A stretch of 64,000 nt of DNA from a virus (Duplodnaviria > Caudoviricetes), in the IMG/VR virus record IMGVR_UViG_3300028886_000028, positions 32,001-96,000 of that record; one strand, written 5' to 3'. Below the pieces are notes generated by a model, which was not told where the DNA came from, made no database searches, and saw nothing but the letters and a program-made list of their open reading frames with translations. Positions 21,685 through 59,208 of this stretch are shown piece by piece. A program made the translations under genes and the position numbers. The first letter of the stretch is position 1; each line of letters starts with the position of its first letter.

Positions 21685-22398
21685 AATATTTTTTTTAAAT
21701 TCTAATTTCCCTTCATACAAATTACCAGATTTTGTTACAATTGCTATTTTTTTATCTGTAATTTGTATTGCATTAATTTCATCTAAATTAGGTATTGATT
21801 TATTTTCGTTTAGCATTTTTTTACCTAGTGCGTTTACATATTTTTTAACAGATGACTCAACTATTGCCTTAATCATTTCATAATCTATTTTTGAAGTAGT
21901 TTGATTTTGTTGAGGTATATAATTTTCTTGTTGGGCTTGTAAATTATTATCAGTTATACCTATTTTGTCAAGAATAGATGTATTAGGATTAAACGCACTT
22001 TGGTCTATATAATTGTTACTAAATGATTCTAGTATTTCTTTTGGTAAACTTTTATTGATTTGAGCGTGAGATTGCATTGGTTGAGAAGGCTGAGATTTTC
22101 TGCTTTCTGCATATTGTTTCATCCTATTGTCAATATCATTATATAATTTTTCTTCGCTAGTATCATTAGAGTAATTTTCATTTATTTTATTTATAGACGT
22201 TCCATTTGAGCCATATGAAGGAGCAATATTTTCGAAACCTGTCATAACAGGAGCACTTGAACTCTTTAAACTTCTGTAAGTTCTTTCCCTGTCTTCTTGG
22301 CGTTCTTTTATTATTTTGCTATCAATTTTTGCATCATCATGAATCATTTTTCGTGCTTTATCTTTAATAGCATCAAATTTACTAATATCCATTGCCAT
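21670..22398 (-). CDS. Hypothetical protein
   Basis: 242-aa ORF coupled to the upstream gene; SLPKEILESF motif. Confidence 0.65.
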   Translation of the reverse strand: MAMDISKFDAIKDKARKMIHDDAKIDSKIIKERQEDRERTYRSLKSSSAPVMTGFENIAPSYGSNGTSINKINENYSNDTSEEKLYNDIDNRMKQYAESRKSQPSQPMQSHAQINKSLPKEILESFSNNYIDQSAFNPNTSILDKIGITDNNLQAQQENYIPQQNQTTSKIDYEMIKAIVESSVKKYVNALGKKMLNENKSIPNLDEINAIQITDKKIAIVTKSGNLYEGKLEFKKNIKGES

Positions 22399-23141
22399 TA
22401 TTTTTCATCATTTTTTTTATCATTATTTTTAGTGTTAATCGGCCCCTGCTTATTTTGTTGCGGGGCTTTTACGCTATTTTGTAACATTAAATTTTTTTGT
22501 TGCTCTTTTTCTGCTTCTGCTTTTGACCAAATATCATCATCAAACCTATTAAAATCGTTTTCAGTATCTTTTATGTTTTTAGCATATTGAGCATATTTTT
22601 TACTATTTGGCTGAGAAGTGAATACGTTCTTTTTCCATTGCTGATTTGCGTATGGAATTGGCCCTTGATTGTTTTTAGAAGATATTTTAGGCACATTTCT
22701 AACAAACTCTCTTTGTGCTTTGACAAAGGATAAAGTGTCATCTAAATCATTGTTAAATTTAACTTGGGAATATACTACACTCATAGAGCCATCACCCTCT
22801 TCATTGTATTCAGGTGTGTCATATCCTTGCATTGGTGGCGGTATATTAAATGTTTTATTACTTGGTTGCCAATAATTAATGCCAGACAGTAAAAACATTT
22901 TCCATCCTGGTTGCCCTCTTAATGAATCTCCAGATACTTGAAACGCTCTTAATGCTTCATTTCCCGCTTTTGTAAGCCCATAATCATAAGGTTGAATCAA
23001 ACGTTTTCCTGGCGCGCTATTGTTTTCATCAGAATATTCTATTGTGACATATCTGCGTTTATTAATAACATCAACCACTTCGTTTGACCCAACCGACTCA
23101 TTTAAAACCTTTTGTAAAATTTCACATAGATTTAATGACAT
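22398..23141 (-). CDS. Stand-alone WYL-domain protein
   Basis: VTIEY..GKRLIQPY..LRAFQ..GWKMFLLSGI matches the WYL pattern; no HTH domain. Confidence 0.7.
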   Translation of the reverse strand: MSLNLCEILQKVLNESVGSNEVVDVINKRRYVTIEYSDENNSAPGKRLIQPYDYGLTKAGNEALRAFQVSGDSLRGQPGWKMFLLSGINYWQPSNKTFNIPPPMQGYDTPEYNEEGDGSMSVVYSQVKFNNDLDDTLSFVKAQREFVRNVPKISSKNNQGPIPYANQQWKKNVFTSQPNSKKYAQYAKNIKDTENDFNRFDDDIWSKAEAEKEQQKNLMLQNSVKAPQQNKQGPINTKNNDKKNDEK

Positions 23142-23151
23142 GGTAAATTAA

Positions 23152-23562
23152 TTATAAATGTTTAATTGTTTGACCTATGTAGTACTGACCTTGTGCTATA
23201 TTTTCAGCAGTGTTAATTAAATCTGCCCCATACTGATTTTCATAGTTATACTTTGAACTGCGTATAGATTTTTCACGGCCGCCAACATCGTTCCTACCAT
23301 TAATATCATATGAGCCTCCGCCGTTGAACGTGTCAAAATTACTATAATCAATCATGTTTGTTGGCTTAGTACAATCTGGTTGCCAAGCATTATGGCCACC
23401 ATGACCAGTACCTTTACCCTGAGGGTCTCCATCGCTCAATGCATCTTTGTGAGTTGGGCCATAAGGTCTTAACTCGTTATAGTCACTTTTATTAATTTCA
23501 TTACTTCTTTCATCAATGCCTCTTTTTTCGAGACAAGATTGACCATTTTCAAATGTTGCCAT
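23152..23562 (-). CDS. Hypothetical Gly/Asp/Asn-rich protein (probably virion-associated)
   Basis: Preceded by the late-type motif at 23596-23603. Confidence 0.6.
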   Translation of the reverse strand: MATFENGQSCLEKRGIDERSNEINKSDYNELRPYGPTHKDALSDGDPQGKGTGHGGHNAWQPDCTKPTNMIDYSNFDTFNGGGSYDINGRNDVGGREKSIRSSKYNYENQYGADLINTAENIAQGQYYIGQTIKHL

Positions 23563-23618
23563 ATCTGTTTAAATTTTAAATATTTTATTTTATATATAAA
23601 TAGTTATTTACTATGTTT

Positions 23619-25697
23619 TTAATATGTTATAATATATGGAGTTTTCATCAATGATTTACCAGAAACTGATTGCCCATTAACCTTTCCATACTCTAACACA
23701 ATGTCAAATACTTCAATTTTCGCTCCATATGCGTTTACGCAAACTTCTTTTTCATCTTTTAGAGAATAACAATTACGATAAACTGTTTCTTTCCAATTTA
23801 TATCTTTTGGGTCTACCCAACATTTTAATTTTATCTCTGAATGCCCTTCTTTACCAAAACTGTTTCCACAATATGCTTCGCCTCGTCCTTCTTCCCAGGA
23901 AAAACAATTTCCTAAATCGTTATATGTATTTTTAAGATAATTAAAATAGTTTTTGCTTCCGAAATAGTTAAAATTAGGCGAATTAAAATTAGGTATGGTA
24001 ATATTTCTTTCTATGTAAACTAATCCTCTTTCATTAACAATCATATCAGACTCCATACCGTTATAGTCAAAATTTTCAATGAATTTTTCTTTTAATATTT
24101 CGTCAAATTTTCTATACCCATCATAAGTTAAAAAATCTTCTATACAGTCTATATCATATAAAATGTTTGTTTTGTTTTTGATATATTTTTCTATTATAGT
24201 GCATTCGTCATAATCATTAAATTCTTTTTTATATTCTTCATAACCTTCAAAGAATTCAAAAAAATCTTCATTAAACATTTCTTCTTTATAGCCATTAATA
24301 AATGATTCGCACACTAGAGATATAAAAGCATCTACATATTCATATTCATCTATATCATCTTGCATAGGTTCTATTTCTTCTTTTGCACGGTTTATAGCAC
24401 TTCCAATATTATATTCGTTCCATTCACTTTTAGGCAAAATTCCAGGTGTTCCAATATATTCAATGAAATCAACATAATTTTCCCAATTGTTTTTTTCATA
24501 ATATGCATTTCCATCGTTATCAAAATTGAAAACTAATTGGTCATGATATTCTTTTAAGCAAAGTAGTTGGCTTTCATTAACTATTATTTTTTTACTTCTT
24601 TTTATTGATTCAGAAATTGATGAAAGTGTTTTACTTCCGCCAACTATAAATATAGAAGATAAATCACCTCTTGGGTGAGCAACATCTAGTGCTTTATTGA
24701 TTATAACAATTGTTTCTTCAGGAGTCATGCCTTCTTTATATTCACATATAACCTTTTCTAATGTCGGTAAACCATCATCTGACCACGCATCACTTCCATC
24801 AGGCATACACATCCAATCATAAAAGCCAAGATAATCCATAAAATCATAGCAATTGTCTTTATTTGGCGTTCCAAATTTTTTTATTGGTTCATTAAAAAAG
24901 TTAGGATACATTTCAATAGCTTCTTCTAACTCATCTATTGGGAATACCGCAAGTTCAATATGACCAGCTAACTCACTATTAGCCCTTAATTTTGCCGTAT
25001 TATTTAAAATAATACCAATCCATTGATAAACATATTTTGTTGGAAAATGGATAAATTTACCAAATTTTACAAATTCAGACAATGCTTTTTTATACATATC
25101 AGGCTGTATAAGCGGAGTCCAATCCTGTTTTCCATTTGCATCATGAATAAAATCGCATAAAACATTCCATGTGTTGTTTTCCTCAAATGCATCATAATAT
25201 GGTAGCCAATCATTAGATTCTGTTAGCCTAATAGACGCATTGCCCATTTTAATGTCTTTATTTGTGTCTTTTGGCTTTGCTGGATTTTTTTCTAATTTTG
25301 GAACCTGTGGCACACATTTTACTTTTTTGACAGCAGTCCTCATTTTTCTAAGAGTATCATGCGCCCAATTTTTCATGTCATTACCACCAGGTAAAATATA
25401 TCCTAAATTTTTAGCATTAACATCGTCATCGTTAATACTCATATTTTTATATTCATGGTCTATTTTTTTTATATCAGAAAAAGACAATGTTTTATCTCCG
25501 TTGTGTATTTTATCTTTTTTATTAGACCTTTTGTTATAATCATCGTTAACAATAGAACTAGCTCGCTTAAATCCTTTTGATTGTTTATATTTGCCAAAAA
25601 GATTTAAGTTATTTTTTATTTTATTAACAAGTTTATCAGGAACCTTTACTTGCCTTTTGCCAAGTACTTTCCCTTCATCTTCTATTATTAGTGGCAT
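23619..25697 (-). CDS. Multi-domain protein with a C-terminal ADP-ribosyltransferase-like (R-S-ExE) region
   Basis: YIERNI..LGNCFSW..DEKEV; domains separated by IRLTES and KKIIVNESQL..LKE linkers. Confidence 0.45.
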   Translation of the reverse strand: MPLIIEDEGKVLGKRQVKVPDKLVNKIKNNLNLFGKYKQSKGFKRASSIVNDDYNKRSNKKDKIHNGDKTLSFSDIKKIDHEYKNMSINDDDVNAKNLGYILPGGNDMKNWAHDTLRKMRTAVKKVKCVPQVPKLEKNPAKPKDTNKDIKMGNASIRLTESNDWLPYYDAFEENNTWNVLCDFIHDANGKQDWTPLIQPDMYKKALSEFVKFGKFIHFPTKYVYQWIGIILNNTAKLRANSELAGHIELAVFPIDELEEAIEMYPNFFNEPIKKFGTPNKDNCYDFMDYLGFYDWMCMPDGSDAWSDDGLPTLEKVICEYKEGMTPEETIVIINKALDVAHPRGDLSSIFIVGGSKTLSSISESIKRSKKIIVNESQLLCLKEYHDQLVFNFDNDGNAYYEKNNWENYVDFIEYIGTPGILPKSEWNEYNIGSAINRAKEEIEPMQDDIDEYEYVDAFISLVCESFINGYKEEMFNEDFFEFFEGYEEYKKEFNDYDECTIIEKYIKNKTNILYDIDCIEDFLTYDGYRKFDEILKEKFIENFDYNGMESDMIVNERGLVYIERNITIPNFNSPNFNYFGSKNYFNYLKNTYNDLGNCFSWEEGRGEAYCGNSFGKEGHSEIKLKCWVDPKDINWKETVYRNCYSLKDEKEVCVNAYGAKIEVFDIVLEYGKVNGQSVSGKSLMKTPYIITY

Positions 25698-25708
25698 ATT
25701 TTATTTAT

Positions 25709-25981
25709 TTAACGAACAATTCCACCACCCCATCCTGCACCGGTACTTGACCAAGTATTATCAGTTGTAAGGCGGCTAGAAATTTTATCAGCAGTAGGCA
25801 TTTTTCCATATTTTGGATTGCCTTCATCATCATGTATGGTTGCACTAATACCATTTTCAGTAGTATCACCATATTCTTTAACATCGCCATCCTCAAAATC
25901 AGGCGCTTCACTAGTATCTTCTATCAATTTAGTGAATAACCTCATTTGGCATTCAGTTAACTTTATTTTTTTCATTATCAC
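25709..25981 (-). CDS. Small acidic protein with a KKIKLTE leader
   Basis: 90 aa; leader motif shared with other late genes. Confidence 0.65.
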   Translation of the reverse strand: MIMKKIKLTECQMRLFTKLIEDTSEAPDFEDGDVKEYGDTTENGISATIHDDEGNPKYGKMPTADKISSRLTTDNTWSSTGAGWGGGIVR

Positions 25982-25995
25982 ATCTTTTATTATTT

Positions 25996-26007
25996 ATAAA
26001 TATTTAT
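25996..26007. promoter_or_regulatory. Palindromic late-promoter candidate serving divergent genes
   Basis: ATAAATATTTAT between 25981(-) and 26033(+). Confidence 0.55.
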
Positions 26008-26032
26008 TGATGATAAATAATATAAATTGTGA

Positions 26033-28033
26033 ATGGCTAATTTAAAAGACAATAATTATCATAATTTAAAAATTAGGGTAAATAAGGACGAATATTGGGA
26101 CTTTTTCATAAATAAAGACTATTATGGCCCTTTTAAATCAAATAGTAATAGCATGTATGATGAATGTTTAATATCATACATTGATGCTTCATTGTCTGAA
26201 TGCGTTAGCGGAGATACTTGGATTTATAGCACTAATAAATATAAATGGGAAAGTGCTTATACAACAAATAGTATATTAAATAATATAGGATATACTGGCG
26301 TTGATAATGGACTTGTTTCTTACAGAAAAGATAGAATAAGCAATAAAGATTTTTTTAATATATTTACAACCTCTAAATATGAAATTGATGGCGATGATAT
26401 TAGGCTTAAGTTACACGCTGTTAGTGGCAATACTTTACTTTACGAGTATCCACTGCATGCTGAAAATGGAGTAATAAAATTAAATGGTGGTTTTTATCAA
26501 GGATTTTTTAAAACAAAATGCGATGAATATTATATACTTCCATCTAAAATGGATGATAATGACACATGGGAATTTGAGTTTGTTTTAAATAAGTGCGAAC
26601 TCGAAAAAGAATCAAATAAAACATTAAATGATAAGTACCCAAATAATAAAGGAATATTTTTTTATTTAGGAACGAGAGCTGAAAATAAATGGATATATTT
26701 ATATGATAAAGAAGATATTGAAGGAAGGGAATCTTGTTTTACTTTATCATATGACGAATACATTGAAGATGCAAAAGTAAATAAAGAAGATTACATAATA
26801 GGTAATTTTTATGATTTGGACCCTGAATTTACAGAAACACCTCCACTAGATATTGATGATTATTTAAATTTTCAATATTATGATGAATCATACTATACGC
26901 CAAACGAGGAAGAACTGTTTTCTGACAATATAGAATGTGATGGACATAGTATATTAGATGATTATTTGGACTATGAAATAACGCCAAGGACTATAGACGA
27001 AAATCTACCTCATATAACTTTAGATAGTTGGTGCTGTGATATTGAAAAAAAGAAAAAAAAGGTAAAGCAAGTGTCATTTTTTAATGCATGCGGATGCGTA
27101 AAACAAGCATACGTAAAAGTTGATGTTGAAGATGATTCAAAATTATCTGGATGCGATTTATTTGGAGAAGGTGACTATATTGATGATTTTGATGGACTAG
27201 ATTATGATACCGATTATTGGGAACCTGAATTAAATATAACAGATTTTGAGTATGAGACAAACAATGGCTTCTTACTTACATCGGCTAATGATTACTATTT
27301 CTACACAGATAATAAATTTTTATTGTTCGACAGAACTTCTAAAGGATATACAATAAAAGATTGGGTAGAAGGTACACAAATGATGTATTTCGGCAAAAAA
27401 AATAAATTTAAAGATAATTTATTCATATTAATGAATAGAACGTCAACCGGCTATACAGTAAAAGACATTGACCAATTAAAAGATAAAGCAAACAATAAAT
27501 ATGATGATTTATATAATGACATATATAACAATGCATTTGCTTTGAGGATTAAAGATGATGGTTCAATAGGATATAGGTATTTGGTGTTTGATTGCGACGC
27601 TAGCAATAAAGGAAAATATACAGTAGAAGAAGGATATTCTTTCCCTAACGTCATAAAAGATTGCGAGTGGCATACTGTACACATCAAGATAAAATCGTTC
27701 TTCAGCTGCCTTAAAATATACTTCTACGTTGATGGAAAATTGGTGTATATAACAAAAGGCTTACCGAAATTTAATTTTCACGAATTAAATGACCTTTATG
27801 AAAAGCAAGAAGGAGTTCCATTCAATATTTCAATTGGCGGAGGAACACAAGGTTTGGCAGAAACTGTTTTAACTAATTACATGCTAGAGCCAACAAGAGT
27901 GTATCCATTAGAAGAAAACTTTGCTGGAACATTTATAGGGTATATGAAGTCATTTAAATTCTATAATTGTGGAATGGAATATATGAGAATATTGAATAAT
28001 TTTAAATATGAAAAAAATATGTTTAAAGTATGA
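26033..28033 (+). CDS. Structural protein with a LamG/ConA-like beta-sandwich
   Basis: WHTVHI..FYVDGKLV..ISIGGG..FIGYMKSFKFY; acidic, Cys-containing inserts. Confidence 0.55.
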   Translation: MANLKDNNYHNLKIRVNKDEYWDFFINKDYYGPFKSNSNSMYDECLISYIDASLSECVSGDTWIYSTNKYKWESAYTTNSILNNIGYTGVDNGLVSYRKDRISNKDFFNIFTTSKYEIDGDDIRLKLHAVSGNTLLYEYPLHAENGVIKLNGGFYQGFFKTKCDEYYILPSKMDDNDTWEFEFVLNKCELEKESNKTLNDKYPNNKGIFFYLGTRAENKWIYLYDKEDIEGRESCFTLSYDEYIEDAKVNKEDYIIGNFYDLDPEFTETPPLDIDDYLNFQYYDESYYTPNEEELFSDNIECDGHSILDDYLDYEITPRTIDENLPHITLDSWCCDIEKKKKKVKQVSFFNACGCVKQAYVKVDVEDDSKLSGCDLFGEGDYIDDFDGLDYDTDYWEPELNITDFEYETNNGFLLTSANDYYFYTDNKFLLFDRTSKGYTIKDWVEGTQMMYFGKKNKFKDNLFILMNRTSTGYTVKDIDQLKDKANNKYDDLYNDIYNNAFALRIKDDGSIGYRYLVFDCDASNKGKYTVEEGYSFPNVIKDCEWHTVHIKIKSFFSCLKIYFYVDGKLVYITKGLPKFNFHELNDLYEKQEGVPFNISIGGGTQGLAETVLTNYMLEPTRVYPLEENFAGTFIGYMKSFKFYNCGMEYMRILNNFKYEKNMFKV

Positions 28034-28407
28034 AAAAATTGATAAGATTAACAGAATCAGATTTACACAAAATAATAAAAGAATCAGTAAATAGAATTTT
28101 AAAAGAAGAAGAATACCGCATTCCAACAGGCGGTATGGATGTATACGCCTATGATTATGATAAGGCGCTTGAAAAAGCAAATTCGTTGGAAGATTGGGAT
28201 AGCATGATGGTAAATAGAAAAAAACGCAGCGATGTTAGTTATAATAATGGAATTTTAAATCATCCACAGCGTAATCAGCCATATGGCGGTTTGGGGGCAT
28301 CGCAATATGTTAATCCAGAACTTTATTGCAGGAATGATGATAATATACTAGACAGTCTTGAATCAGACGCTGAATACAGAAAAAAACAGCACGGCTTTCC
28401 ATTTTAA
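28030..28407 (+). CDS. Small protein with an MKKLIRLTESDLHKIIKESV leader
   Basis: Leader shared with the 45203 and 58888 genes. Confidence 0.7.
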   Translation: MKKLIRLTESDLHKIIKESVNRILKEEEYRIPTGGMDVYAYDYDKALEKANSLEDWDSMMVNRKKRSDVSYNNGILNHPQRNQPYGGLGASQYVNPELYCRNDDNILDSLESDAEYRKKQHGFPF

Positions 28408-28415
28408 AATAAATG

Positions 28416-28443
28416 AAGGGGTGATTATTAGTCACTCCTTTTT
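28416..28443. terminator. Terminator between convergent genes
   Basis: aaggggtgat-tatt-agtcactccttttt. Confidence 0.65.
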
Positions 28444-28765
28444 AATATTCTATGTAGTTGTCAATGAAAAAATCATCTATTATTCCCATTTTTAAAGCAG
28501 CTCTATATGCAGTTTGATTTTTTTTGAAAAATTCTGTTTTTGTTTTATATTTTATTGCTTCTTCTTCAATATGCTTATAATTCCAATAGTTTTTTTTATG
28601 CTGTTTTTGCTTAACCAACCAGGTCATTTCATCTACATACCCATATTTATAGGCAGCCAGAAAAGCACTCAAATTGTGTTTTTTAAATTCTTCTTTGGTT
28701 GAGTATTTTTTAGCTTCTTCCATCATGTTTTCCCTATTTTTCCAATATCCTTTAATATGTTTCAT
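28442..28765 (-). CDS. Two-repeat helical protein resembling homing-endonuclease-associated repeats, without a nuclease domain
   Basis: Two copies of YW..E..EEAxKYxTKxEFxKxNxxAxxAAxKxGxxD. Confidence 0.5.
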   Translation of the reverse strand: MKHIKGYWKNRENMMEEAKKYSTKEEFKKHNLSAFLAAYKYGYVDEMTWLVKQKQHKKNYWNYKHIEEEAIKYKTKTEFFKKNQTAYRAALKMGIIDDFFIDNYIEY

Positions 28766-28865
28766 TTTTTTGTAAGGTTTATATTAATAAATAGTTTATA
28801 AATATAAACAAAGGGAAAACTTTCAATATTTATAATAAATTAATAAATAAAATAAAAATAATAAC

Positions 28866-39342: not shown

Positions 39343-39579
39343 ATGAATATTAAAAAAAATATTATAAATGAAGTAATAAATAACTATTTAAAAAGTAAGT
39401 GCATGATAAAAGAATATAAAAATCCTAATGATGCTGATACAGTTAGGGCTTGTGGAGATATGCTTCAACAGTTGTATAACAACATAATTGGAAACGGAAT
39501 GTCTAAAAGGGAAATAACTGTTGAAATTATGGCAAAAATAATAGGTGAACTTAGACACCTTGAAGAAATGATGAAATAA
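39343..39579 (+). CDS. Small hypothetical protein
   Basis: ATG at 39343 follows ATATTTAT at 39319; IINEVI..IKE leader. Confidence 0.55.
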   Translation: MNIKKNIINEVINNYLKSKCMIKEYKNPNDADTVRACGDMLQQLYNNIIGNGMSKREITVEIMAKIIGELRHLEEMMK

Positions 39580-42885: not shown

Positions 42886-43575
42886 ATGAAAATTTTATTG
42901 TCAGAATCTCAATTTAAAAAGATATGCGAGGCAATGATGCCAGGGTTTAGACTTGATTATTTAACATCTGCTCAATCATTTAGTGAAAGGAACAAATATT
43001 GTTTGAAAATGTTGGGTGAACCTGTAGGAAAAGGTTCAAGTAGAATTGTCTACCAAATAGACGATGAGACTTGCCTTAAATTGGCATGGAATGAAAAAGG
43101 TATTGAACAAAATTTGGAAGAAATTTCTATAGCAAGTGATGGGTTTATATCTTATATACCTAAAATATATAATGGTAGTGATGAAGAAAATGGTTTGTGG
43201 ATTATAACACAATACGTTTTACCAGCAAAAGCGTCAGATTTTAAAGAAATACTTGGAATACCTTTCAGAGACGTAGCTAAATTTGCAAAAAATACAGATG
43301 ATAGATTTAAATATAAATCAGGGCAATTTTATATGAACATTGCTGATAATATTGTGCGTAAATTATACCAAAAGTATGAAGATAATTATGATGTAATATC
43401 TTTATTCAATGATATTAGCGATTTAAAAGCAAATTATAATCAACTTGTTATTGATTTGGCAGCAATACGAAATTGGGGTATGGTAAGAGAAAATGGAAAC
43501 ACATACATGGTAATGTTAGATACTGGTTTTAGCGAAGAAGTTTATAACCAATATTATAAAAGTAATTTTAGATAA
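42886..43575 (+). CDS. Protein kinase-like protein
   Basis: GKGSSRIVY (Gly loop), LKLA (Lys), QNLEE (helix C), DLAAIRNWG (catalytic loop), LDTGF (DFG-like). Confidence 0.7.
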   Translation: MKILLSESQFKKICEAMMPGFRLDYLTSAQSFSERNKYCLKMLGEPVGKGSSRIVYQIDDETCLKLAWNEKGIEQNLEEISIASDGFISYIPKIYNGSDEENGLWIITQYVLPAKASDFKEILGIPFRDVAKFAKNTDDRFKYKSGQFYMNIADNIVRKLYQKYEDNYDVISLFNDISDLKANYNQLVIDLAAIRNWGMVRENGNTYMVMLDTGFSEEVYNQYYKSNFR

Positions 43576-44120: not shown

Positions 44121-45179
44121 ATGAAAGTTATATTAACAGAGGAACAGTTTATAAAATTAACAGAGTCTGCCGAAAATTTGGACTCTCCGTTATATCATTA
44201 CACATATTTATCTTTTTTGATAGGTATGTTAGAAACCGGCACGTTTGAAACGTCTTACGACGATTTTGATTATTATAGAGCAGATAGACAAAATGGAGTT
44301 CTGCGGTGTGGTGGCGAAGATACAAGAGATTATATATCATTTACAAGGGATAAAATGTATAATGTTAACATGGATAAGGGTTTGTATAGTATTCCTTCTT
44401 TTAGAGGTTCTTACGAAAAAACGGATTACATAGGCCCACAAGTTAGAATACAATTTAATCCTAATTTTGTAAAAAATGTTAGAAATGGTAGATTACAACC
44501 TTATTTTTTTGACAGTTATCCAGACCAAAAGGAAGAAAAACTATATTTTGAGAAAGACACAAAATCAATACCATTAGATACAAAATATATTGAAAAGATA
44601 GATATTCTTCTTCAAGTTTTAAGAAAAGACGATATTCCTTTCATTAAAAAATTATTTGATTTCCCTGAAATCGTTGGTAAAACACGAATTTATTATGTTA
44701 AATACGCTGTCAGCCAATGGTCTATAGATAGAAGCAATGGCAAAGCGATAAAAGACGATAATTATAAATTGTATATTGAATTTTTAAAAGGCAATGAAAA
44801 GTTTTCAACTCCATTAATTTCATTAAAAAATGTTTTACACTATTTTTCTGATGATGAATTAAACAATTATAAAGAACCTTCTTATATGGAAAAATATTAT
44901 AATGGAAATGTAAAAGATGAAAATGAACAATGGGAATTAAATAATAAAAGGAAAAAATATACTGACAAAATTATTTCATTATATAATCAGGCCACTGATG
45001 AGCAGAAAAAAGAAATAAGAAACATATATAGAAAGTATAAAGATAAATTAGCAATGCCGTTATCGTATAAAATTCATGACCAGACCACAGGCTATAAAGG
45101 TGATTTTAGTGATGATGTAGGGTATTTGGAAAAGTTTTACGATGATGTTAACGAAATTTTTGAACGTTTTGAATTATGA
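44121..45179 (+). CDS. Putative ART-fold protein with an MKVILTEEQF leader
   Basis: LYHYT..ISFTRD..VRI.F..EEKL (H-S-E-like arrangement). Confidence 0.4.
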   Translation: MKVILTEEQFIKLTESAENLDSPLYHYTYLSFLIGMLETGTFETSYDDFDYYRADRQNGVLRCGGEDTRDYISFTRDKMYNVNMDKGLYSIPSFRGSYEKTDYIGPQVRIQFNPNFVKNVRNGRLQPYFFDSYPDQKEEKLYFEKDTKSIPLDTKYIEKIDILLQVLRKDDIPFIKKLFDFPEIVGKTRIYYVKYAVSQWSIDRSNGKAIKDDNYKLYIEFLKGNEKFSTPLISLKNVLHYFSDDELNNYKEPSYMEKYYNGNVKDENEQWELNNKRKKYTDKIISLYNQATDEQKKEIRNIYRKYKDKLAMPLSYKIHDQTTGYKGDFSDDVGYLEKFYDDVNEIFERFEL

Positions 45180-45202
45180 AAAATATTTATAAAAAAAATT
45201 AT

Positions 45203-45967
45203 ATGAAAAAGATAATTAGGTTAACAGAAGGTGATTTACATAAAATTATAAAGGAATCCGTTAAAAAAATAATAAAAGAGGCATCTATATATCCAGGATA
45301 TAATAGCACATCAACACAAGGCATGACACCTATTAATAATAAAAACTATGAGTATGACCCATCAACGTTTACTGGGGTTGACAAAACAATGGGTTATGCA
45401 CAAAAATTCAAGTATAATGGTGATGACCCAGAATGGTTTAGAGAGACACTAAGAATATCAGATGGAGATGATTTCAATCCAGATTGGATGGAAAGCGCCG
45501 GCGTAGATTTTGAAGGGGATACAGCTTTCGATGTTGATTCTTTGTATAATAGTATAACGGAAAAACTCATTAGCGCAGGAGTAAAAGATGTTACTGAAGC
45601 ACATAAAAATGTTTATCAAAACGCATATGGTGGCGGAAACTACGATGATGAAGAATATTATGTTGTAAATCCTGAATTTGTAAAACATTTTTTAAGTGCA
45701 AGTGGAGAACAGCGTTTACATAAACAAGGATATGTGTATAATTGGTTTATTGAATTGGGTGATAGAACATTTTGTTCAAGACATAATTTTGATGATGAAG
45801 ACATTGCACAAGAAAATTGCGATAAATATATAAAATTAATAAACAAGTTAGGCGGAAGTTGTGAAGCGTGGGTAGATGGAATATCTTTAGAAAACGGAAA
45901 ATATATAATGGATACATGTTTAGCCTATGAAAATTTTGGCGGCGGAGAGCCTTTTTGGATGGATTAA
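45203..45967 (+). CDS. Hypothetical protein with an MKKIIRLTEGDLHKIIKESV leader
   Basis: Start follows ATATTTAT at 45183. Confidence 0.7.
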   Translation: MKKIIRLTEGDLHKIIKESVKKIIKEASIYPGYNSTSTQGMTPINNKNYEYDPSTFTGVDKTMGYAQKFKYNGDDPEWFRETLRISDGDDFNPDWMESAGVDFEGDTAFDVDSLYNSITEKLISAGVKDVTEAHKNVYQNAYGGGNYDDEEYYVVNPEFVKHFLSASGEQRLHKQGYVYNWFIELGDRTFCSRHNFDDEDIAQENCDKYIKLINKLGGSCEAWVDGISLENGKYIMDTCLAYENFGGGEPFWMD

Positions 45968-48764: not shown

Positions 48765-49961
48765 ATGGTACAATATAATGATTTAACGCAGCAAGAATCT
48801 ATTAAAAATATCAGTAATTTATTGAATGAAGCTGATGTATCAAGAAGGTTTAGGAATTTAATATGCACATCAACACTTGTTAAATACATCGCTAAGTGTG
48901 GGTATGAAGGAAAATATACAGAAGAAGCGTTATATAAAACGTTAGAAAAGTGTGGTATTAAACCTAAAACTTATCGTGGAGGTAAACCATATTTCAATAG
49001 GAAAAATGCATGTAATTGCGTTGAAAAACACATATTTGATATAAGAGATATGGCGGAAAAAATGGAACAGTATAATCAACCAAAAGACGAAACTGAATGG
49101 AATGTTGGTTATGGCAGGGGCGATATGAGTGTTGCCTCTAGAGAAATGTTGGCTAACGATGGTGTGTTTGGTTCTGATGAAAATGAGTTGTATAAAACAA
49201 ACGAAAGCAAAAAAATTATCAGAATATCTGAAGATAAACTAAAATTGTTTACAATAAATGTTAAGCAATTAGAAGAAGCCTATGATTGGAATGCATGGGG
49301 TTCATTAGAAGGCGGCATCGGTAAAAGACCGTATCGTAAAACAGCAACAGCAGAAATGCCAAAGAGAAAGCCAGTAAAAAGTTTTTACGACGCAAAAACA
49401 GTTAGCCAAATAGGTAAAACATTAAGAAAGGCATGGGATTCTTTAAAATTGAGGGCAATAATAGGCTATAATAGAAATGTTACTCGTATATACGGACGTG
49501 GTAACGCTGATGCTATTTACAATTTTTTTAATGATAATGGAGAAAATATGTTTGCCAAATTTGCAGAAAAATATAACACAATTTCAAAATTAACAAGCGA
49601 TATTGAAAAGTGGGCAAAGGAAGGCGATAGAAACGGGGTAGATTATAGATTACGTGATTTGCCTAAAAATTTAGAAGAACTTGCTATTATGTTAAATGGG
49701 CTTTTTAACAAATATAAAGAATTGAAAAGAGTTCGCCAATTCAGCCCAACTTTAAATGGTAATGCAAATATGGTCGGAAATATGATAGATGGATATAAAA
49801 CAACTAATGGATTATCTGATTTAGTAATTGCAAAAAGTCCGGCAGAATTATCAAAAATAACAAGCCAACTTAATACTTGTGCCGAATACATTAGAAATAT
49901 GTGGGGAGATAACCTTGAAGGTGGAACAGTTAGGGATGGCTCAGATAGAATTGTACGTTAA
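48765..49961 (+). CDS. Two-domain hypothetical protein with an internal KKIIRISE linker
   Basis: N-terminal NEADVSRRFRNL..GY segment shared with the 45985 gene. Confidence 0.65.
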   Translation: MVQYNDLTQQESIKNISNLLNEADVSRRFRNLICTSTLVKYIAKCGYEGKYTEEALYKTLEKCGIKPKTYRGGKPYFNRKNACNCVEKHIFDIRDMAEKMEQYNQPKDETEWNVGYGRGDMSVASREMLANDGVFGSDENELYKTNESKKIIRISEDKLKLFTINVKQLEEAYDWNAWGSLEGGIGKRPYRKTATAEMPKRKPVKSFYDAKTVSQIGKTLRKAWDSLKLRAIIGYNRNVTRIYGRGNADAIYNFFNDNGENMFAKFAEKYNTISKLTSDIEKWAKEGDRNGVDYRLRDLPKNLEELAIMLNGLFNKYKELKRVRQFSPTLNGNANMVGNMIDGYKTTNGLSDLVIAKSPAELSKITSQLNTCAEYIRNMWGDNLEGGTVRDGSDRIVR

Positions 49962-51359: not shown

Positions 51360-51364
51360 GCTAT

Positions 51365-52075: not shown

Positions 52076-52089
52076 GCCAGTATATTTTT
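52050..52089. terminator. Bidirectional terminator
   Basis: aaaatatactggctt..aagccagtatatttt. Confidence 0.75.
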
Positions 52090-53182: not shown

Positions 53183-53216
53183 TTAATATATTATTTGTAT
53201 TTATAGTTAAACTCGA

Positions 53217-53226
53217 TGCAAATATA
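53217..53226 (-). promoter_or_regulatory. Bacteroidota-type -7 promoter element
   Basis: TATATTTGCA on the minus strand upstream of the ATPase gene. Confidence 0.6.
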
Positions 53227-53392
53227 CATAAAAAAAATATAAAAAAAAACTTTTTTATGTTAAAAAATATTAAAATATTAGATATTAAATATTTGTTTAT
53301 ACGTTTTTTTTACATTTATTAATAAATTATCTAAAACTATCAAATATTTATTATTAAATAAAAATAATAAAATATAAAAATATAAAGAAATT

Positions 53393-56300
53393 ATGGCAGA
53401 TAATGCAAGAGGAGTTCATGTCTCACCTGGAGTTTATTCACGTGAAATCGACCTAACATATGCTGTGAAGAGTCTTGGTATTACAACACTCGGTGTTGCT
53501 GGCGAAACAATGCGTGGCCCAGCATTCCAACCAATGCATATTGAAAACTGGCGCCAATTTACTGAAGTTTTCGGTGGAACAAGTACAGAAAAATTTAAAG
53601 GAAGCCAATATCCTAAATATGAGTTACCTTATATTGCAAAGTCATATCTTACTGAATCTAAACAATTGGAAGTTGTTCGCGTTCTTGGACTTAGCGGATA
53701 TAAGGCTGGACCCGCATGGGTTGTAACAGCTAATAGGCCAAACGCTAATGGTGAAACGGTTAAAAAAGATATGGTTGTTGCAGTTCTCCGTTCAAGAGGA
53801 CATTATGAAAAATACCATAAGTTTGATGTAAATAAAGATTCATGCGAATGCCCTTCAAGTGCATATGATAAATTAATATATGAAGTTGGAGAAATAAAAA
53901 GAGAAAGCGGAACGTGCAATGTTTATGGCTATAACGATATTGTCAAACTTAAAGCCTATAAACCTTTGTATGCAGCAGGAAATGAATGTACAGGCTATGA
54001 AATAGACGGCATGGCCAGTGATTTCAAAGTAAGTTCAACAAATTATGGAAGATTTACAATTTATGGATTGAAAGGATTCCAATCTACTGGTACTACAGAA
54101 ATTTCTAGCGGCAATTCTGATTATTTTGAGTATTCTGTTTCTTTAAATCCTCATGATAAAGATTTTATTTTGAAAGTTTTAGGAACAGACCCTCAAGATG
54201 GCGATGCACCATTATATGTTGAATCATTGTATGATGTTGCACTTGCTCATGGTATTATGGATGGAATTACTGAACCAACTTATATTGACGGTATTAATCA
54301 AAAACTTACATTCTATAATGTATACGACCCATCTGATTATTGTGGTTTAGAGCCTATAAATGGTTTACTTAGGCTACAAGAATCTTCTTTACAGAGAAAA
54401 AATGTTGGTCAGAGATTTGTTGCAGATTGCAGCACAGTTAGCAACGAGGATTATAAAGGTGATGTGTACATTTATGCTCACCCATATGATTATGAGACAG
54501 GATTACCATTTACATTTGATAATTTGTTTAAAACAACCGCAACTGCAACAGAAAATAAAGATAGTTCTGGCTCTATAACATCATATACTGTTACAGTAAA
54601 TGGTAATTTAGATACAGAATTTGTTAGTAAAAATTTTGGCGATGCTTCCGGCTCTGTATGTTGCATTTATGATGATGAAATCAAAAAAATAGATGAAATT
54701 AATTTTACCGGTACCGGAACATGCGCAACAGCAGAAGAAAGCGGCACTACAGTTGAAGCAATAATCGCTGACCATTTTACACCTGAAGGGTTAATATTAT
54801 CAATAATAAATAAAGACCTTATTGGACAAGTATTTACAGTAGCAAGATATGTCGATAATCAAGGAAAAGTTCATTATTTCTACAAATACTATCCTGAAGC
54901 AAATGTAAAAAAATGGGGAGAAGACCATAAAAATGTTGACCTAGTTCCTATAGTTGATAAGTTGCAATCAGGTAGCGAATCTATTACAAACAAAGATTAT
55001 AATGATAAGGGAGAATCCACAAGACTTGTTATAGTTAAAAATTTAGCCGATAACTTGTACTATAAATTAGTGGAAGATGAAAATATTGAGAAATCTGATT
55101 GTGGCGGAAAAGATGTAAGGTTTGTAAATTGCGACCTTAACAACTATGCTTCTCCGTATAGATACGCTTCTACTCCTTGGATTGTTTCTAACCTTAAGGG
55201 AGATTACAATCATATAGAACTGAATAAGTTGTTCAGATTCCATACTATTTCTGATGGTACTAATTCTAACTACGAAATCAAGATTTCTATAGAAAATATT
55301 AGGCCTGATGAGGGTGTATTCGATGTAGTTGTAAGAGATATAAATGATAGTGATGAATTCATTATGCCACTTGAGAAATTCTCAAAATGTACATTAACCC
55401 CTGGCGATAGGAATTATATTGGTTATAAGATTGGTACATTTGATGGAATTTATGAAACAAAATCTAAATTCATTACAGTAGAGATTGCTGAAGGAACTGC
55501 TGTTGAACATTCTGCACCTGCTGGTTTCTTAGGATACCCAATGGCTCATTATGATGGTTTGGAAATTGTTTCTCCTAGCGAAGAAAATGAGAAAAAAGTT
55601 GATGGCCCAACTATCAAGTACAACTTGTACTACGATAATGATGTTAAGAACAGAAAACAGTATTTTGGCTTATCTACAAGAGTTGGTGTTGACGTAGACA
55701 CATTCACATATAAAGGAAAAGCCGCATATATTGATTTACCAGAGATGTTAACGCAAGGCTTCCACCTTGACTCAAGACTTGACAAGTCTAATTATAAAGG
55801 AGGGCATTTGCCATATATTACTGTCGATGGAGAAAGTGGCTATACATTCGATGCAGTATCTGTAAACAACAGAACATCAGTTCTTACTGACATTCCAGCC
55901 ATTGGAACTGAAGAACTTATGAACGGTTCAATTTATGAATACGTAAATCTTCGTAAGTTCACAGTTTATTTCTATGGAGGATTTGACGGATGGGACATTT
56001 ATAGGAATCAGAGAAGTAATACTGATGACTTTAAGATGTCTAAATATCTTGGAGTGTATGACAATAACAGTGGAGAAGGATATTCATTCAATAGAATTGA
56101 TGACCCTGATGGACTTGGTTTAAATCAAAATGGTATTACATCTGACTGGTATGCTTATCTTGCAGCATATAGACAGTTTGCTAACCCTGAAGCTGTAGAT
56201 ATTAACGTATTTGCTTCTCCTGGTATTGATTATGTTAATAACAAAACTCTTGTTAATGAAGTAATTGATATGCTTGAAGAGGAACGTGCAGACTCAATCT

Positions 56301-57025
56301 ATGTTGTTACAACTCCAGATAAACCAAGTGGTGCAGCAGATTTCGTAGACGAAATGTATACGCCTGACGATGCTGTTTATAACCTTGAGGATACTGAAAT
56401 TGATTCAAATTATACTTGTACATATTATCCTTGGGTTAAATATCTTGACCAAGATAATAACCAGTATATTTACTTGCCTGCGACAAAAGACGTTGTACGT
56501 AATTTCGCACAGACAGATAATCAAACATTCCCTTGGTTTGCACCAGCAGGTCTTGAACGTGGTGATGTTAATTGCGTAAGAGCACACTTCATTACAAAAT
56601 TAGCTGACGAAGATGTACTTTATGAAGGAAGAATTAACCCAATTAAGACATTCGCAACAGATGGAGTTAAAGTTTGGGGACAGAAAAACTTACAAGTACG
56701 TGAGTCACAACTTAACAGAATTGCAGTTCGTAGACTACTTCTTAGAATGAGAAAACTTATTGCAATCGCTTGCAGAAGTTTGATATTCGAGCCAAACGAC
56801 CCAGTAACAAAGAACATGTTCTTGAGCGCAGTTTCTCCAATTATGGACAATATTAGAGCGAATAGAGGTATTTCAGATTATAAGATTGAAGTAAATGATA
56901 CGCCTGAATCTCGTGACAGACGCGAATTACCGGCTAAGATATATTTCAAACCTTATAACGCATTAGAGTACGTTGTTCTTGACTTTATACTCACGCCAGA
57001 AGGTGTTTCATTTGATAATATTTAA
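53393..57025 (+). CDS. Tail sheath protein
   Basis: SPGVYSREID, GPAF.P, YYPW, PWFAPAGLERG, INPI, VWGQK, RIAVRRLL, FEPND. Confidence 0.95.
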   Translation: MADNARGVHVSPGVYSREIDLTYAVKSLGITTLGVAGETMRGPAFQPMHIENWRQFTEVFGGTSTEKFKGSQYPKYELPYIAKSYLTESKQLEVVRVLGLSGYKAGPAWVVTANRPNANGETVKKDMVVAVLRSRGHYEKYHKFDVNKDSCECPSSAYDKLIYEVGEIKRESGTCNVYGYNDIVKLKAYKPLYAAGNECTGYEIDGMASDFKVSSTNYGRFTIYGLKGFQSTGTTEISSGNSDYFEYSVSLNPHDKDFILKVLGTDPQDGDAPLYVESLYDVALAHGIMDGITEPTYIDGINQKLTFYNVYDPSDYCGLEPINGLLRLQESSLQRKNVGQRFVADCSTVSNEDYKGDVYIYAHPYDYETGLPFTFDNLFKTTATATENKDSSGSITSYTVTVNGNLDTEFVSKNFGDASGSVCCIYDDEIKKIDEINFTGTGTCATAEESGTTVEAIIADHFTPEGLILSIINKDLIGQVFTVARYVDNQGKVHYFYKYYPEANVKKWGEDHKNVDLVPIVDKLQSGSESITNKDYNDKGESTRLVIVKNLADNLYYKLVEDENIEKSDCGGKDVRFVNCDLNNYASPYRYASTPWIVSNLKGDYNHIELNKLFRFHTISDGTNSNYEIKISIENIRPDEGVFDVVVRDINDSDEFIMPLEKFSKCTLTPGDRNYIGYKIGTFDGIYETKSKFITVEIAEGTAVEHSAPAGFLGYPMAHYDGLEIVSPSEENEKKVDGPTIKYNLYYDNDVKNRKQYFGLSTRVGVDVDTFTYKGKAAYIDLPEMLTQGFHLDSRLDKSNYKGGHLPYITVDGESGYTFDAVSVNNRTSVLTDIPAIGTEELMNGSIYEYVNLRKFTVYFYGGFDGWDIYRNQRSNTDDFKMSKYLGVYDNNSGEGYSFNRIDDPDGLGLNQNGITSDWYAYLAAYRQFANPEAVDINVFASPGIDYVNNKTLVNEVIDMLEEERADSIYVVTTPDKPSGAADFVDEMYTPDDAVYNLEDTEIDSNYTCTYYPWVKYLDQDNNQYIYLPATKDVVRNFAQTDNQTFPWFAPAGLERGDVNCVRAHFITKLADEDVLYEGRINPIKTFATDGVKVWGQKNLQVRESQLNRIAVRRLLLRMRKLIAIACRSLIFEPNDPVTKNMFLSAVSPIMDNIRANRGISDYKIEVNDTPESRDRRELPAKIYFKPYNALEYVVLDFILTPEGVSFDNI

Positions 57026-57044
57026 AAACAGCATTTTATAATTG

Positions 57045-57077
57045 TTGTGGGTTAACTCTCGTTAGCCCACAATTTTT
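57045..57077 (+). terminator. Intrinsic terminator
   Basis: ttgtgggttaac-tctc-gttagcccacaa-ttttt. Confidence 0.75.
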
Positions 57078-57121
57078 ATTTTTCTTTTTTTGAAAATATT
57101 TATTGAAAAATAGTATACGTT

Positions 57122-57604
57122 ATGAAAAAACCTAGTAAAATTAAAACAGTATCTGCCAAAAAGGCATTTTTATTGCCATCTTCTTTCGCGGCAATAACTC
57201 TTTTTGGCGTGGTTTATTGCAAATCAAAAGCAAAAGCAGATAAAATAAATGAAAGCGATAAGATAGATAGTCAACTTGAAAGTCATGAAACAATACATGT
57301 TAGGCAAGCAGAGAGTACAAAAAATTCTTGGCTTTTGTTTTATTTAATTTACATTTGGCAATGGATTAAAAATTTACAATTAATTTTTATAGATTCACAC
57401 GCTCCTTATAAGTTCATGCCATTTGAATTGGAAGCGTATAGGTATCAAGATAATTGGGATTATTGTTTTGGAAAATGCGAAAAATGGAAAGAATATAATA
57501 AATTGAAATTAAAAGAAAAATATTATTTAGCAAAAAAGTATTATAGTAATAAAACATATTTTCCCAGTTTCATTTATAATAATGTGGATGAATTTTTAAA
57601 TTGA
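57122..57604 (+). CDS. HExxH-containing (zincin-like) protein
   Basis: AITLFG..HETIHVRQ..PFELEAY. Confidence 0.55.
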   Translation: MKKPSKIKTVSAKKAFLLPSSFAAITLFGVVYCKSKAKADKINESDKIDSQLESHETIHVRQAESTKNSWLLFYLIYIWQWIKNLQLIFIDSHAPYKFMPFELEAYRYQDNWDYCFGKCEKWKEYNKLKLKEKYYLAKKYYSNKTYFPSFIYNNVDEFLN

Positions 57605-57632
57605 TATAAATATTTATATAAAAAATATTAAC

Positions 57633-58028
57633 ATGAATAAAAAAAATAATTTTGTAAAAGATTTGCTTAAAGATTTAAAAAATACTTCTAAATATCTTTC
57701 AGAAGCATATATATTTGATGGCCAAGAAGGAGCGCCAGAAATACCAGGAGAAGAGCAAGAAATGTATCGCGGAGAACACCAAGTTGCTGACCCAACAGTT
57801 CCACAACAGCAGCCACAAGCTGCGCAACAAGGAGATAATGCGGAGGAACAAGCAATGCATGCACAAGAAGTTATTAAGCACGAACCAATTATCGGAAGAA
57901 TAAGAGAAACTGCCATAGAAGGATTGAAAAAATATTCTGACAATCCAACATCAAAACTTTATGAGTTCTTTAAAAAAGTGTTCTTGGAAAGCGATAAAGT
58001 TTTAACAGATACAGGAAGCAAAAATTAA
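57633..58028 (+). CDS. Hypothetical protein (acidic, Gln-rich)
   Basis: Own late-type motif at 57604-57619; LSE near the N-terminus. Confidence 0.65.
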   Translation: MNKKNNFVKDLLKDLKNTSKYLSEAYIFDGQEGAPEIPGEEQEMYRGEHQVADPTVPQQQPQAAQQGDNAEEQAMHAQEVIKHEPIIGRIRETAIEGLKKYSDNPTSKLYEFFKKVFLESDKVLTDTGSKN

Positions 58029-58084
58029 ATTAAATTTATTGCTGTAAAAGATAAATATTAATGGGAACAACATACTTGTTTATA

Positions 58085-58115
58085 AAAAATGCAGCCATTT
58101 TTGACTGCATTTTTT
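58085..58115. repeat. Hairpin, copy 2 of the AAATGCAGCCA family
   Basis: aaaaatgcagcca-tttt-tgactgcattttt. Confidence 0.7.
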
Positions 58116-58244
58116 GTTTATTGGGGCCAAACCATATATAATTGCCAAAATTTTAAAAAAAGAGAATTTTTTTGTTGAAAAAATATAATATTATATATTT
58201 ATATTAAATAATTAAAATAATCTAGATTAAAATATTTATTTACA

Positions 58245-58733
58245 ATGAGTGATTTACTTTTGAAAATGCCATTGAATTATGAGCCACTCCGGAAGAATAG
58301 ATGGCTATTTAGATTTCCAGCAGATTTGGGAATTCAAGAGTGGTGGTTATCAAGTGCAGCTCGTCCTTCAATAACACAGGATGAAACTCAAATACCTTTC
58401 TTGAACACTTCAACATATGTTGTAGGTCGTTATACTTGGGATACAATTCAGGTTACTCTTCGTGACCCAATCGGCCCTTCAGCATCACAGGCTGTTATGG
58501 AATGGGTTCGTTTACATTCTGAATCTGTAACTGGTAGACAAGGCTATGCAGCCGGTTACAAAAGAGATGTTGAACTTGAAATGCTTGACCCAACCGGTGT
58601 TGTGGTTTCAAAATGGATTCTTAAAAACTGTATGCTAACTACAGTAAACTTTGGTGACTTGGATTATCAGTCTAGTGATTTGGCAACAATTCAAATGACC
58701 CTGAGGTTTGATTATGCTATATTAGCGTATTAA
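58245..58733 (+). CDS. Tail tube protein (gp19-like)
   Basis: EPLRKNRW..RP..GRYTW..DPI..EW..YKRD..LDPTG..W..FGDLDY..LRFD; downstream of the sheath gene. Confidence 0.9.
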   Translation: MSDLLLKMPLNYEPLRKNRWLFRFPADLGIQEWWLSSAARPSITQDETQIPFLNTSTYVVGRYTWDTIQVTLRDPIGPSASQAVMEWVRLHSESVTGRQGYAAGYKRDVELEMLDPTGVVVSKWILKNCMLTTVNFGDLDYQSSDLATIQMTLRFDYAILAY

Positions 58734-58759
58734 TCTGATAATCATACTATTAGTAATTT

Positions 58760-58785
58760 TGGCGCGCTTTATGTGCGCCATTTTT
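58760..58785 (+). terminator. Intrinsic terminator of the tube gene
   Basis: tggcgcgc-tttat-gtgcgcca-ttttt. Confidence 0.75.
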
Positions 58786-58822
58786 ATTGGCAATAATATA
58801 GCAGTTTGCACAACTAATTCTT

Positions 58823-58851
58823 AAAATGCAGCCATTTCTGACTGCATTTTT
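58823..58851. repeat. Hairpin, copy 3 of the AAATGCAGCCA family
   Basis: aaaatgcagcca-tttc-tgactgcattttt. Confidence 0.7.
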
Positions 58852-58887
58852 CATTTGCACTGATATTTATTATAAAATTATAGTAAT

Positions 58888-59208
58888 GTGAAAAAGATTA
58901 TAAGATTGACGGAATCTGACTTGCATAGAATAATAAAAAGGTCAGTTAGCAAGATATTGAGAGAGGGCGTATTAGGAAACGACTGGCGTCAAAATGAAGA
59001 TGATGCATTAAATAACTACGAGCCATTTGAAGACCAGATTGATAGATATGAAGCTGAAACAGAATTCAGAAATCAACATAGTGATGCATTGGGTTGGAAT
59101 GATGACGAAGCAGAAGGATATGAGGAAGACCCTGATTGGCATAGAGATGATGTTAGCGGGTGGAATGGAGATATATCTGATGGCGATTTATATAGAGGCA
59201 CATGGTAA
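58888..59208 (+). CDS. Small acidic protein with a KKIIRLTESDLHRII leader (GTG start)
   Basis: Shared leader; ATATTTAT at 58863. Confidence 0.7.
   Translation: MKKIIRLTESDLHRIIKRSVSKILREGVLGNDWRQNEDDALNNYEPFEDQIDRYEAETEFRNQHSDALGWNDDEAEGYEEDPDWHRDDVSGWNGDISDGDLYRGTW

Follow-up and report, generated by a model that had tools for sequence, protein, structure and literature searches.

The internal proteins IPI, IPII and IPIII of phage T4 carry a capsid-targeting sequence (CTS), reportedly described by Mullaney and Black in 1996. These proteins are diverse and share only this sequence, which places them in the scaffolding core (PMC3012670, PMC9958956). The T4 prohead protease gp21 cleaves after Glu in I/L-x-E (PMC12991175), and trimming shortens gp23 by 65 residues, gp24 by 10 and gp21 itself by 9 (PMC9958956). 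What directs proteins to the scaffolding core of T4 is described there as still "mysterious". Here, we analysed a 64,000-nucleotide stretch of viral DNA (hereafter the window), which comprises bases 32001-96000 of the 401,138-bp virus record IMGVR_UViG_3300028886_000028 (31% G+C) and encodes several otherwise unrelated proteins that begin with a near-identical leader peptide. A preliminary description of this DNA had proposed that the leader is a portable tag, which loads diverse cargo into the phage head for injection into the host. We give an even chance to the core of this proposal, namely that the leader might be a T4-style capsid-targeting tag that can be removed by the prohead protease.

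Following a motif scan, the leader profile was run against all six frames of the 401,138-bp genome. This search identified 16 strong copies, each located at the very start of an open frame, with per-domain E-values of 6e-7 to 3e-17, and the number of copies is far above chance. The three near-identical leaders previously described in the window, at positions 28030, 45203 and 58888, were present by translation exactly at these positions (Table 1). The gene at genome position 168776 encodes a second, internal leader copy within the same protein, and leader genes form two tandem arrays at 355-358 kb and 386-387 kb of the genome.

The module spans around 26 residues with the consensus M-x-K-K-x-I-R-L-T-E-S-D-L-H-x-I-V-K-E-S-V-x-K-I-L-x-E. 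In the alignment of the 16 leaders (alignment A1), L7, E9 and E26 were invariant and T8 and V20 nearly so, position 24 was occupied by I, L, V or M in every leader, and there was no conservation past E26; the tag ends in (I/L/V/M)-x-E in all 16, a motif of the gp21 site type (I/L-x-E). For a larger set of 212 copies from 150 diverse proteins, the final E was kept in 85-95% of the copies and the residue two positions before it was L or I in approximately 85-90%, with no column after the final E being conserved above ~20%.

The preliminary description had noted that codons differ among the copies, and this was upheld by quantification. Indeed, the same codon was used at identical residues in 56% of the pairs, compared to 48% expected from codon usage, and Ser was written with both the TCN and the AGY codon families. 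Given that synonymous sites are saturated and Ser codons mixed, selection acts on the protein and not on the DNA, and a DNA-level repeat or recombination handle could be ruled out within this genome. We also ruled out a signal peptide or membrane anchor, as the leader peptide is charged. Double-glycine (bacteriocin-type) leaders follow the consensus L-S-x-x-E-L-x-x-I-x, end in G-G (or G-A/G-S) and are cut by a C39 peptidase; despite the likeness of L-T-E-S-D-L-H-x-I-I to this consensus, such a leader was rejected, as K-E-S-V stands where G-G would be expected, and 10 further conserved residues follow the double-glycine-like stretch in the module. The leader peptide had no match in 50,697 GenBank phage records (E <= 1, 33-residue query, low-complexity filter on), nor did the DNA of the window match any GenBank phage, and these searches thus revealed no cultured relative carrying the leader. 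Searching the literature for the motif letters returned nothing relevant, and no description of the tag was found in the titles and abstracts of the rumen jumbo phage literature.

The proteins behind the leaders had been described as otherwise unrelated, and a BLASTP comparison of these cargo parts agreed with this: there was no mutual similarity except for a 13-residue stretch common to the proteins encoded at genome 77203 and 386987. The cargo parts are 28-228 residues long, and most of them are acidic and rich in aromatic residues. For the 45203 protein, all nine homologues found (9/9) consist of the leader, an indel-rich low-complexity linker and a conserved C-terminal domain. Its AlphaFold2 model comprises a helix (residues 9-28), disorder (26-109) and a confidently folded domain (110-254), and the leader helix is not packed on the cargo domain. 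Based on the layout of the homologues and on this model, the leader is predicted to be an appendage that stands apart from the cargo fold. Foldseek provided no PDB match above noise for the 45203 cargo domain. Neither PHROGs nor Pfam had a match for the proteins with strong leaders or for 10 long carriers from metagenomes, and in a Pfam search of about 19 cargo-bearing proteins, no family was found except HNH_3 in one probable fused open reading frame, and no toxin or immunity domain was recognised. The ESM Atlas returned only unnamed clusters.

Judging by its predicted head genes, this rumen phage is T4-like. The genome encodes a Gp23 major capsid protein (PF07068, E 4.7e-65; 30-40% identity to the capsid proteins of cultured T4-like phages), a Peptidase_S77 prohead protease (PF03420, E 5.8e-23; genome 25035-25733) and, between the genes for these two proteins, a 521-aa acidic scaffold; a portal and a tail sheath are also encoded. 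The protease retains the motifs GELNHP and GVSSRG, containing the catalytic His and Ser and aligning to H85 and S140 of T4-like gp21, which are the residues that were mutated to obtain dead gp21 (PMC12991175). In a T4-like record, the above-mentioned cleavage sites of gp23, gp24 and gp21 read FLTE/A, LLRE/S and LLIE/T, respectively (slash at the cut). Here, the capsid protein contains ..HLIYE/ATAS.., its counterpart in the related phage G007 contains LLKE/AT, the scaffold has a comparable K(I/L)LxE before an acidic tract, and the N-terminus of the protease, in this genome and in the relatives, contains (L/I)LIE. From the matching site motifs together with the catalytic residues, we infer that the S77 enzyme has a T4-like specificity.

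The expression context of the leader genes was assessed using the ATATTTAT box, often extended to TATAAATATTTAT, which peaks 22-33 nt before start codons genome-wide. This box precedes the portal, protease, scaffold, sheath, tube-like and large fibre-like genes, and no such box was found before the DNA polymerase and SNF2 helicase genes. It occurred <=70 nt upstream of 9/16 leader genes versus 66/468 crude gene calls (Fisher p = 7e-5), and 5 further leader genes are located directly behind a gene carrying the box. The leader genes had been thought to sit behind a late-type motif or to be coupled to genes that do, which the 9 direct and 5 coupled cases bear out; this supports a predicted co-expression with the virion genes. 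Within the window, the box preceding gene 45203 lies downstream of an alternative ATG at 45176 and therefore supports 45203 as the start. The start of gene 28030 overlaps the stop of an upstream 666-aa gene (26033-28033), which carries a box at 26000-26007. The sequence TATAAAT, which is the core of T4 late promoters, often precedes the ATATTTAT box.

A degenerate DNA pattern of the leader was found in more than 115 places in IMG/VR. All 15 carriers that were checked are jumbo phages or their fragments (19-100% complete according to CheckV), and an S77 protease was present in 5/5 carriers that were at least 59% complete and in 2/10 fragments. Five large relatives contain 6-20 leaders each. Four leader genes in relative G008 and three in G006 are located <=3 kb from the protease gene, and in G007 one leader gene directly follows it. 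In these three phages, leader genes are flanked by the capsid-scaffold-protease genes on one side and by the portal genes on the other; in T4, this slot is taken by the prohead core genes 67 and 68. In G008 and G006, orthologues of the 58888 protein are encoded in this neighbourhood of leader genes, at a distance of ~1-2 kb from the gene for the prohead protease.

That so many unrelated proteins carry one short, strongly conserved helix argues for a partner common to all. The late class of promoter, the location of leader genes in head modules and the T4-type protease point to the prohead, and the exact end of conservation at (I/L)-x-E followed by a disordered linker points to cleavage at this site. 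According to the tag reading, the module, consisting of a short N-terminal stretch and then an amphipathic helix, would be a portable tag for prohead targeting and processing, used by a large, uncultured clade of T4-like jumbo phages that infect Prevotellaceae of the rumen and gut. Tagged proteins would be produced late, alongside the virion proteins, and during assembly of the head shell, their helix would dock them into the scaffolding core. The gp21-type S77 protease would then cut after (I/L/V/M)-x-E at the end of the tag, possibly with further cuts after the L-T-E and (I/V)-K-E motifs inside it, thereby freeing small, diverse and fast-evolving cargo inside the head. The freed cargo could exit with the DNA, as the T4 internal proteins do, and the example of T4 IPI suggests that it may be injected into the host. 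The module could act as a cleavable joint within multi-unit proteins and where it is fused behind a domain of ~195 residues (described below).

The leader resembles the T4 CTS in several respects. Both are short N-terminal peptides common to otherwise diverse small proteins of a T4-type phage, and in both cases head assembly relies on a shell of gp23, a core resembling gp22 and the gp21 S77 protease. Moreover, both end in I/L-x-E, the type of site cut by gp21, and in both systems the cargo is polymorphic between related phages. However, the leader is present on at least 16 genes spread over the genome, compared to three in T4, and it also occurs inside proteins, in tandem units, behind a conserved N-terminal domain and in host chromosomes. 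Furthermore, packaging and cleavage are proven for T4, whereas they are predicted for the tag described here. It also comprises ~26 residues versus ~10 in T4 (PMC9958956). Given this mismatch in length and the lack of a match among GenBank phages, the leader appears to be, as far as can be seen, an analogue and not a homologue of the T4 CTS, and it most likely represents the known T4 principle in a new, longer and far more widely used form.

The module is very widespread. A profile search of 1.84 billion representative proteins yielded 6,971 clusters at E <= 1e-3, of which 1,404 also passed E <= 1e-10. Among the best 150 metagenomic hits, 106 contained two or three leader copies, and the 261 copies in these hits were N-terminal in 130 cases, internal in 117 and C-terminal in 14. 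Internal copies mostly retain their Met, with x-E-S-(K/R) directly before it, and some directly follow ..KGKGW(Q), an ending shared with a stand-alone protein of the genome studied here, which suggests that such proteins consist of whole units fused head to tail. The leader pattern was also found in 21 contigs of bacterial or archaeal species genomes, nearly all labelled Prevotella, Prevotellaceae or Bacteroidales and most of them metagenome bins. Two isolates, Segatella bryantii DSM 11371 and Prevotella sp. MA2016, carry one copy each (Table 1). Their position at insertion sequence (IS) elements suggests that these copies are captured phage DNA, and they hint at a Prevotella/Segatella host range.

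The MA2016 protein (L156:5798-6823, minus strand) consists of an N-terminal domain (N-domain) of ~195 residues, followed by ENKQYKRNTN, the leader with its Met, and a tail. Members of this N-domain family (P0184-P0260) share four invariant Cys and the motifs RLSNHGT and IQYVY, and no fold match above noise was obtained with Foldseek and VIA-align (best Z 5.0). The family is also represented in a 279,749-bp jumbo phage contig (L170:8001-8870), and the bacterial copies examined that consist of the N-domain only (L171, L172) end at or near transposase genes.

Several of these observations weigh against the tag reading. First, with this many internal and C-terminal copies, the module does not require an N-terminal position, and the residues preceding the internal copies (x-E-S-K/R) lack I/L at P3. 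Second, no S77 protease was found in Segatella bryantii DSM 11371 or Prevotella sp. MA2016, so the module can persist without the protease. Third, the tag exceeds the T4 tag in length as stated above, E9 is part of a helix-capping box, and any amphipathic helix would show the hydrophobic pattern; part of the (I/L)-x-E pattern could accordingly be structural. Fourth, the relatives belong to one clade, and the co-occurrence of leaders and S77 proteases in them does not constitute independent observations. Lastly, the internal and fused copies fit a cleavable joint, a non-cleaved docking helix and a junction of polymorphic effectors equally well. The tag proposal of the preliminary description is thus favoured by the head module with its S77 protease, the (I/L/V/M)-x-E boundary, the unrelated cargo, the shared box and the position near the protease in relatives, but the module is not strictly N-terminal, as about half of the copies in metagenomic proteins are internal or C-terminal. 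A bolder version of the tag reading would see in the leader a clade-wide, position-independent module, which combines prohead address and cleavable joint, loads thousands of exchangeable effectors for delivery with the DNA and provides a seam for cargo swapping, with hosts having captured tagged genes; we would hold this version only tentatively, with the chances leaning somewhat against it.

Alternatively, the module might be a docking or oligomerisation helix that is never cleaved. One possibility is that it binds diverse late proteins to a common phage partner outside the core, for which the assembly machinery, a chaperone or the neck or tail would qualify; another is that it bundles them into hetero-oligomers. 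In either case, the terminal Glu would be structural. The heptad-like amphipathic pattern with its T-E-S-D helix cap would be expected of such a helix, as would internal and C-terminal positions, and the late expression predicted for both leader and virion genes is equally compatible with it. However, a docking helix leaves unexplained why conservation ends exactly at (I/L)-x-E, why a disordered linker follows and why the leader genes of the relatives cluster at the protease, scaffold and portal genes, and we consider it unlikely.

Another explanation draws on polymorphic toxins, in which a conserved N-terminal part and a hypervariable C-terminal module meet at a short conserved junction (VENN in CdiA, PxxxxDPxGL in Rhs). 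The leader would accordingly be the conserved junction of a polymorphic-effector system, like VENN or DPxGL, and would mark the point of exchange of variable C-terminal effector modules. The stand-alone genes would be free modules, and the effectors would act within the infected cell or between bacteria, without a role for the capsid. The N-domain fusions have this architecture: the leader is located at about residue 200 in 66/77 N-domain homologues, and unrelated tails follow N-domains that are 95-99% identical. The two tandem arrays mentioned above and the copies beside IS elements in bacterial chromosomes would fit as well. Unlike the toxin junctions, though, the leader also occurs alone at the start of small genes, which have their own start codons and promoter boxes, and it is not conserved at the DNA level; with synonymous sites saturated, it provides no DNA recombination handle within this genome. 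Nor were toxin or immunity domains recognised in the cargo. A junction of this kind is improbable as the sole explanation, although the two readings, junction and capsid tag, could both hold. Finally, targeting to a host structure (membrane, nucleoid or a host enzyme) or a turnover mark, independent of the virion, would account for a short, highly conserved helix on diverse proteins and for the copies in host genomes, but is very improbable given the late, virion-type promoter class, the position of the genes in head modules and a charged peptide that is neither signal peptide nor membrane anchor.

Two further systems can be compared with the capsid-tag reading. The prohead proteases of phiKZ-like giant phages recognise sites of the type S/A/G-x-E, and we know of no single tag shared by the propeptides of their head and inner-body proteins. 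The capsid and protease lineages of these phages are distinct from those of T4. The likeness lies in the loading of many head proteins by jumbo phages and in trimming after Glu (phiKZ, 201phi2-1 and SPN3US; PMC5694885, PMC7411985, PMC10052503). The second system is that of the encapsulins, which are bacterial nanocompartments. Here, a short terminal cargo-loading peptide, usually C-terminal and uncleaved, directs varied cargo into an HK97-fold shell, and these peptides are unrelated in sequence to the leader.

If the leader is indeed a capsid-targeting tag, its abundance would be of practical value. Few proteins are known to carry the T4 tag, whereas at least 16 genes per genome and ~7,000 protein clusters would offer many natural variants from which to derive the docking rule. 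From sequence alone, the tag would flag presently unannotated proteins of gut and rumen jumbo phages as likely to be delivered by the capsid, and such proteins are prime candidates for anti-defence and host-takeover functions. It could also become a handle for listing injected phage effectors in metagenomes and a packaging tool for foreign proteins, and the distribution of the leader points to Prevotella/Segatella as the host range of the phages.

Apart from the full leaders, the preliminary description had listed shorter and looser variants in the window (Table 1). The three shorter ones, at 25975 (minus strand), 42886 and 44121, cover the first 15-19 positions of the leader, with (I/L)-x-E again at the end. 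They share its N-terminal position, but with profile E-values of 17-20 they remained below significance. Orthologues of the 42886 protein in relatives retain MK(I/V)(V/I)KINESQKKRLFEA, which resembles divergent full leaders (KINESQLRKIIKESV.., ..KINESQLRKIIKESVKNVLNE) seen elsewhere and thereby makes short forms plausible; the three variants are probably relatives of the leader. The phrog_4301 match of the 42886 protein begins only at residue 26, and a paralogue of this kinase-like protein, carrying MKIVLHENQLLPIRE, is encoded in the head module at genome 22753-23589. In the relative G009 (L173), the orthologue has a ~175-residue N-terminal extension, hence the short leader is internal. A ATATTTAT box lies 28 nt upstream of the gene starting at 25975, at 25996-26003 on the minus strand. 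The two loose variants, at 23141 (minus strand) and 39343, found no profile support at E <= 10 and were dropped. The 39343 gene lies near the DNA polymerase gene, and an orthologue of its product adjoins the portal-side genes of the G008 head module (L164:12695-12919, minus strand). A weak internal partial copy at 49200 has the E-S-K/R prefix that is typical of internal copies in metagenomic proteins.

Table 1. Leader copies, variants and promoter boxes (window coordinates unless a genome position or another locus is given)
Feature	Coordinates	Strand	Context
Full leader, 26 aa, MKKLIRLTESDLHKIIKESVNRILKE	28030..28107	+	125-aa gene 28030-28407; profile 58.6 bits, E 1.9e-16
Full leader MKKIIRLTEGDLHKIIKESVKKIIKE	45203..45280	+	254-aa gene 45203-45967; profile 55.5 bits
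Full leader KKIIRLTESDLHRIIKRSVSKILRE, GTG start	58888..58965	+	106-aa very acidic gene 58888-59208; profile 54.6 bits
Starts of the 16 leader genes	Genome 81, 60030, 77203, 90888, 123720, 168776, 177154, 187897, 236809, 355261, 357021, 357362, 357795, 386392, 386614, 386987
Late-type box ATATTTAT	45183..45190	+	20 nt before 45203 start
Late-type box ATATTTAT	58863..58870	+	25 nt before 58888 start
Short variant MKKIKLTECQMRLFTKLIE (MKKIKLTECQM..LIE)	25919..25975	-	88-aa gene 25709-25975; not significant with profile
Short variant MKILLSESQFKKICE	42886..42930	+	229-aa kinase-like gene 42886-43575
Short variant MKVILTEEQFIKLTE	44121..44165	+	352-aa gene 44121-45179; not significant with profile
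Loose variant LCEILQKVLNE	22398..23141	-	No profile match at E <= 10; not counted
Loose variant IINEVI..IKE	39343..39579	+	78-aa gene; no profile match; not counted
Weak internal partial copy (NESKKIIRISEDKL..)	49200..49259	+	In 398-aa gene 48765-49961; not significant with profile
Leader gene in isolate	L152:6932-7195		Segatella bryantii DSM 11371; beside IS1595-family transposase or fragment
Leader gene in isolate	L156:5795-6823	-	Prevotella sp. MA2016; beside IS1595-family transposase or fragment

Some additional features of the head genes were noted. The N-terminal helix of the scaffold (genome 25912-27477; L167, A3) terminates in K(I/L)LxE, in the same form as the leader, and is followed by a long acidic tract, and a conserved D-M-N-E-S motif of the scaffold resembles the E-S prefix of internal leader copies. 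A comparison of the leader with the scaffold N-terminus gave ~0 bits and thus no significant likeness, though both end in K-(I/L)-L-x-E, and a complex prediction of the leader (A1) with the scaffold (A3) scored 0.00, which is no evidence either way. The prohead protease gene of the 349-kb relative G007 codes for 607 aa (L166:7810-9633), and its product ceases to align at the catalytic GELNHP motif (GECYKPD..), suggesting that an intein or some other insert lies in the region of the active site. A conserved 144-aa protein (M(I/K)RLNKE(I/Y)K(I/L)D.C..) is encoded between the portal and protease genes of the genome studied here (genome 21696-22130; L169) and among the leader genes in the head modules of relatives (L164:10200-10634 and L165:11172-11606, both on the minus strand); this protein is a candidate partner of the leader.

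With respect to the record itself, its last ~80 bases (401055-401138) recur at the other end, in the upstream region and start of the first leader gene (genome 81; region 1-617), so that the record has a short terminal overlap, as in a circular or permuted assembly. Within the 57-bp gap between the divergent genes starting at 25975 (minus strand) and 26033 (plus strand), ATATTTAT boxes on both strands overlap (window 25996-26007). RNA runs containing the stretch exist, among them one metatranscriptome with 55% of the sampled words.

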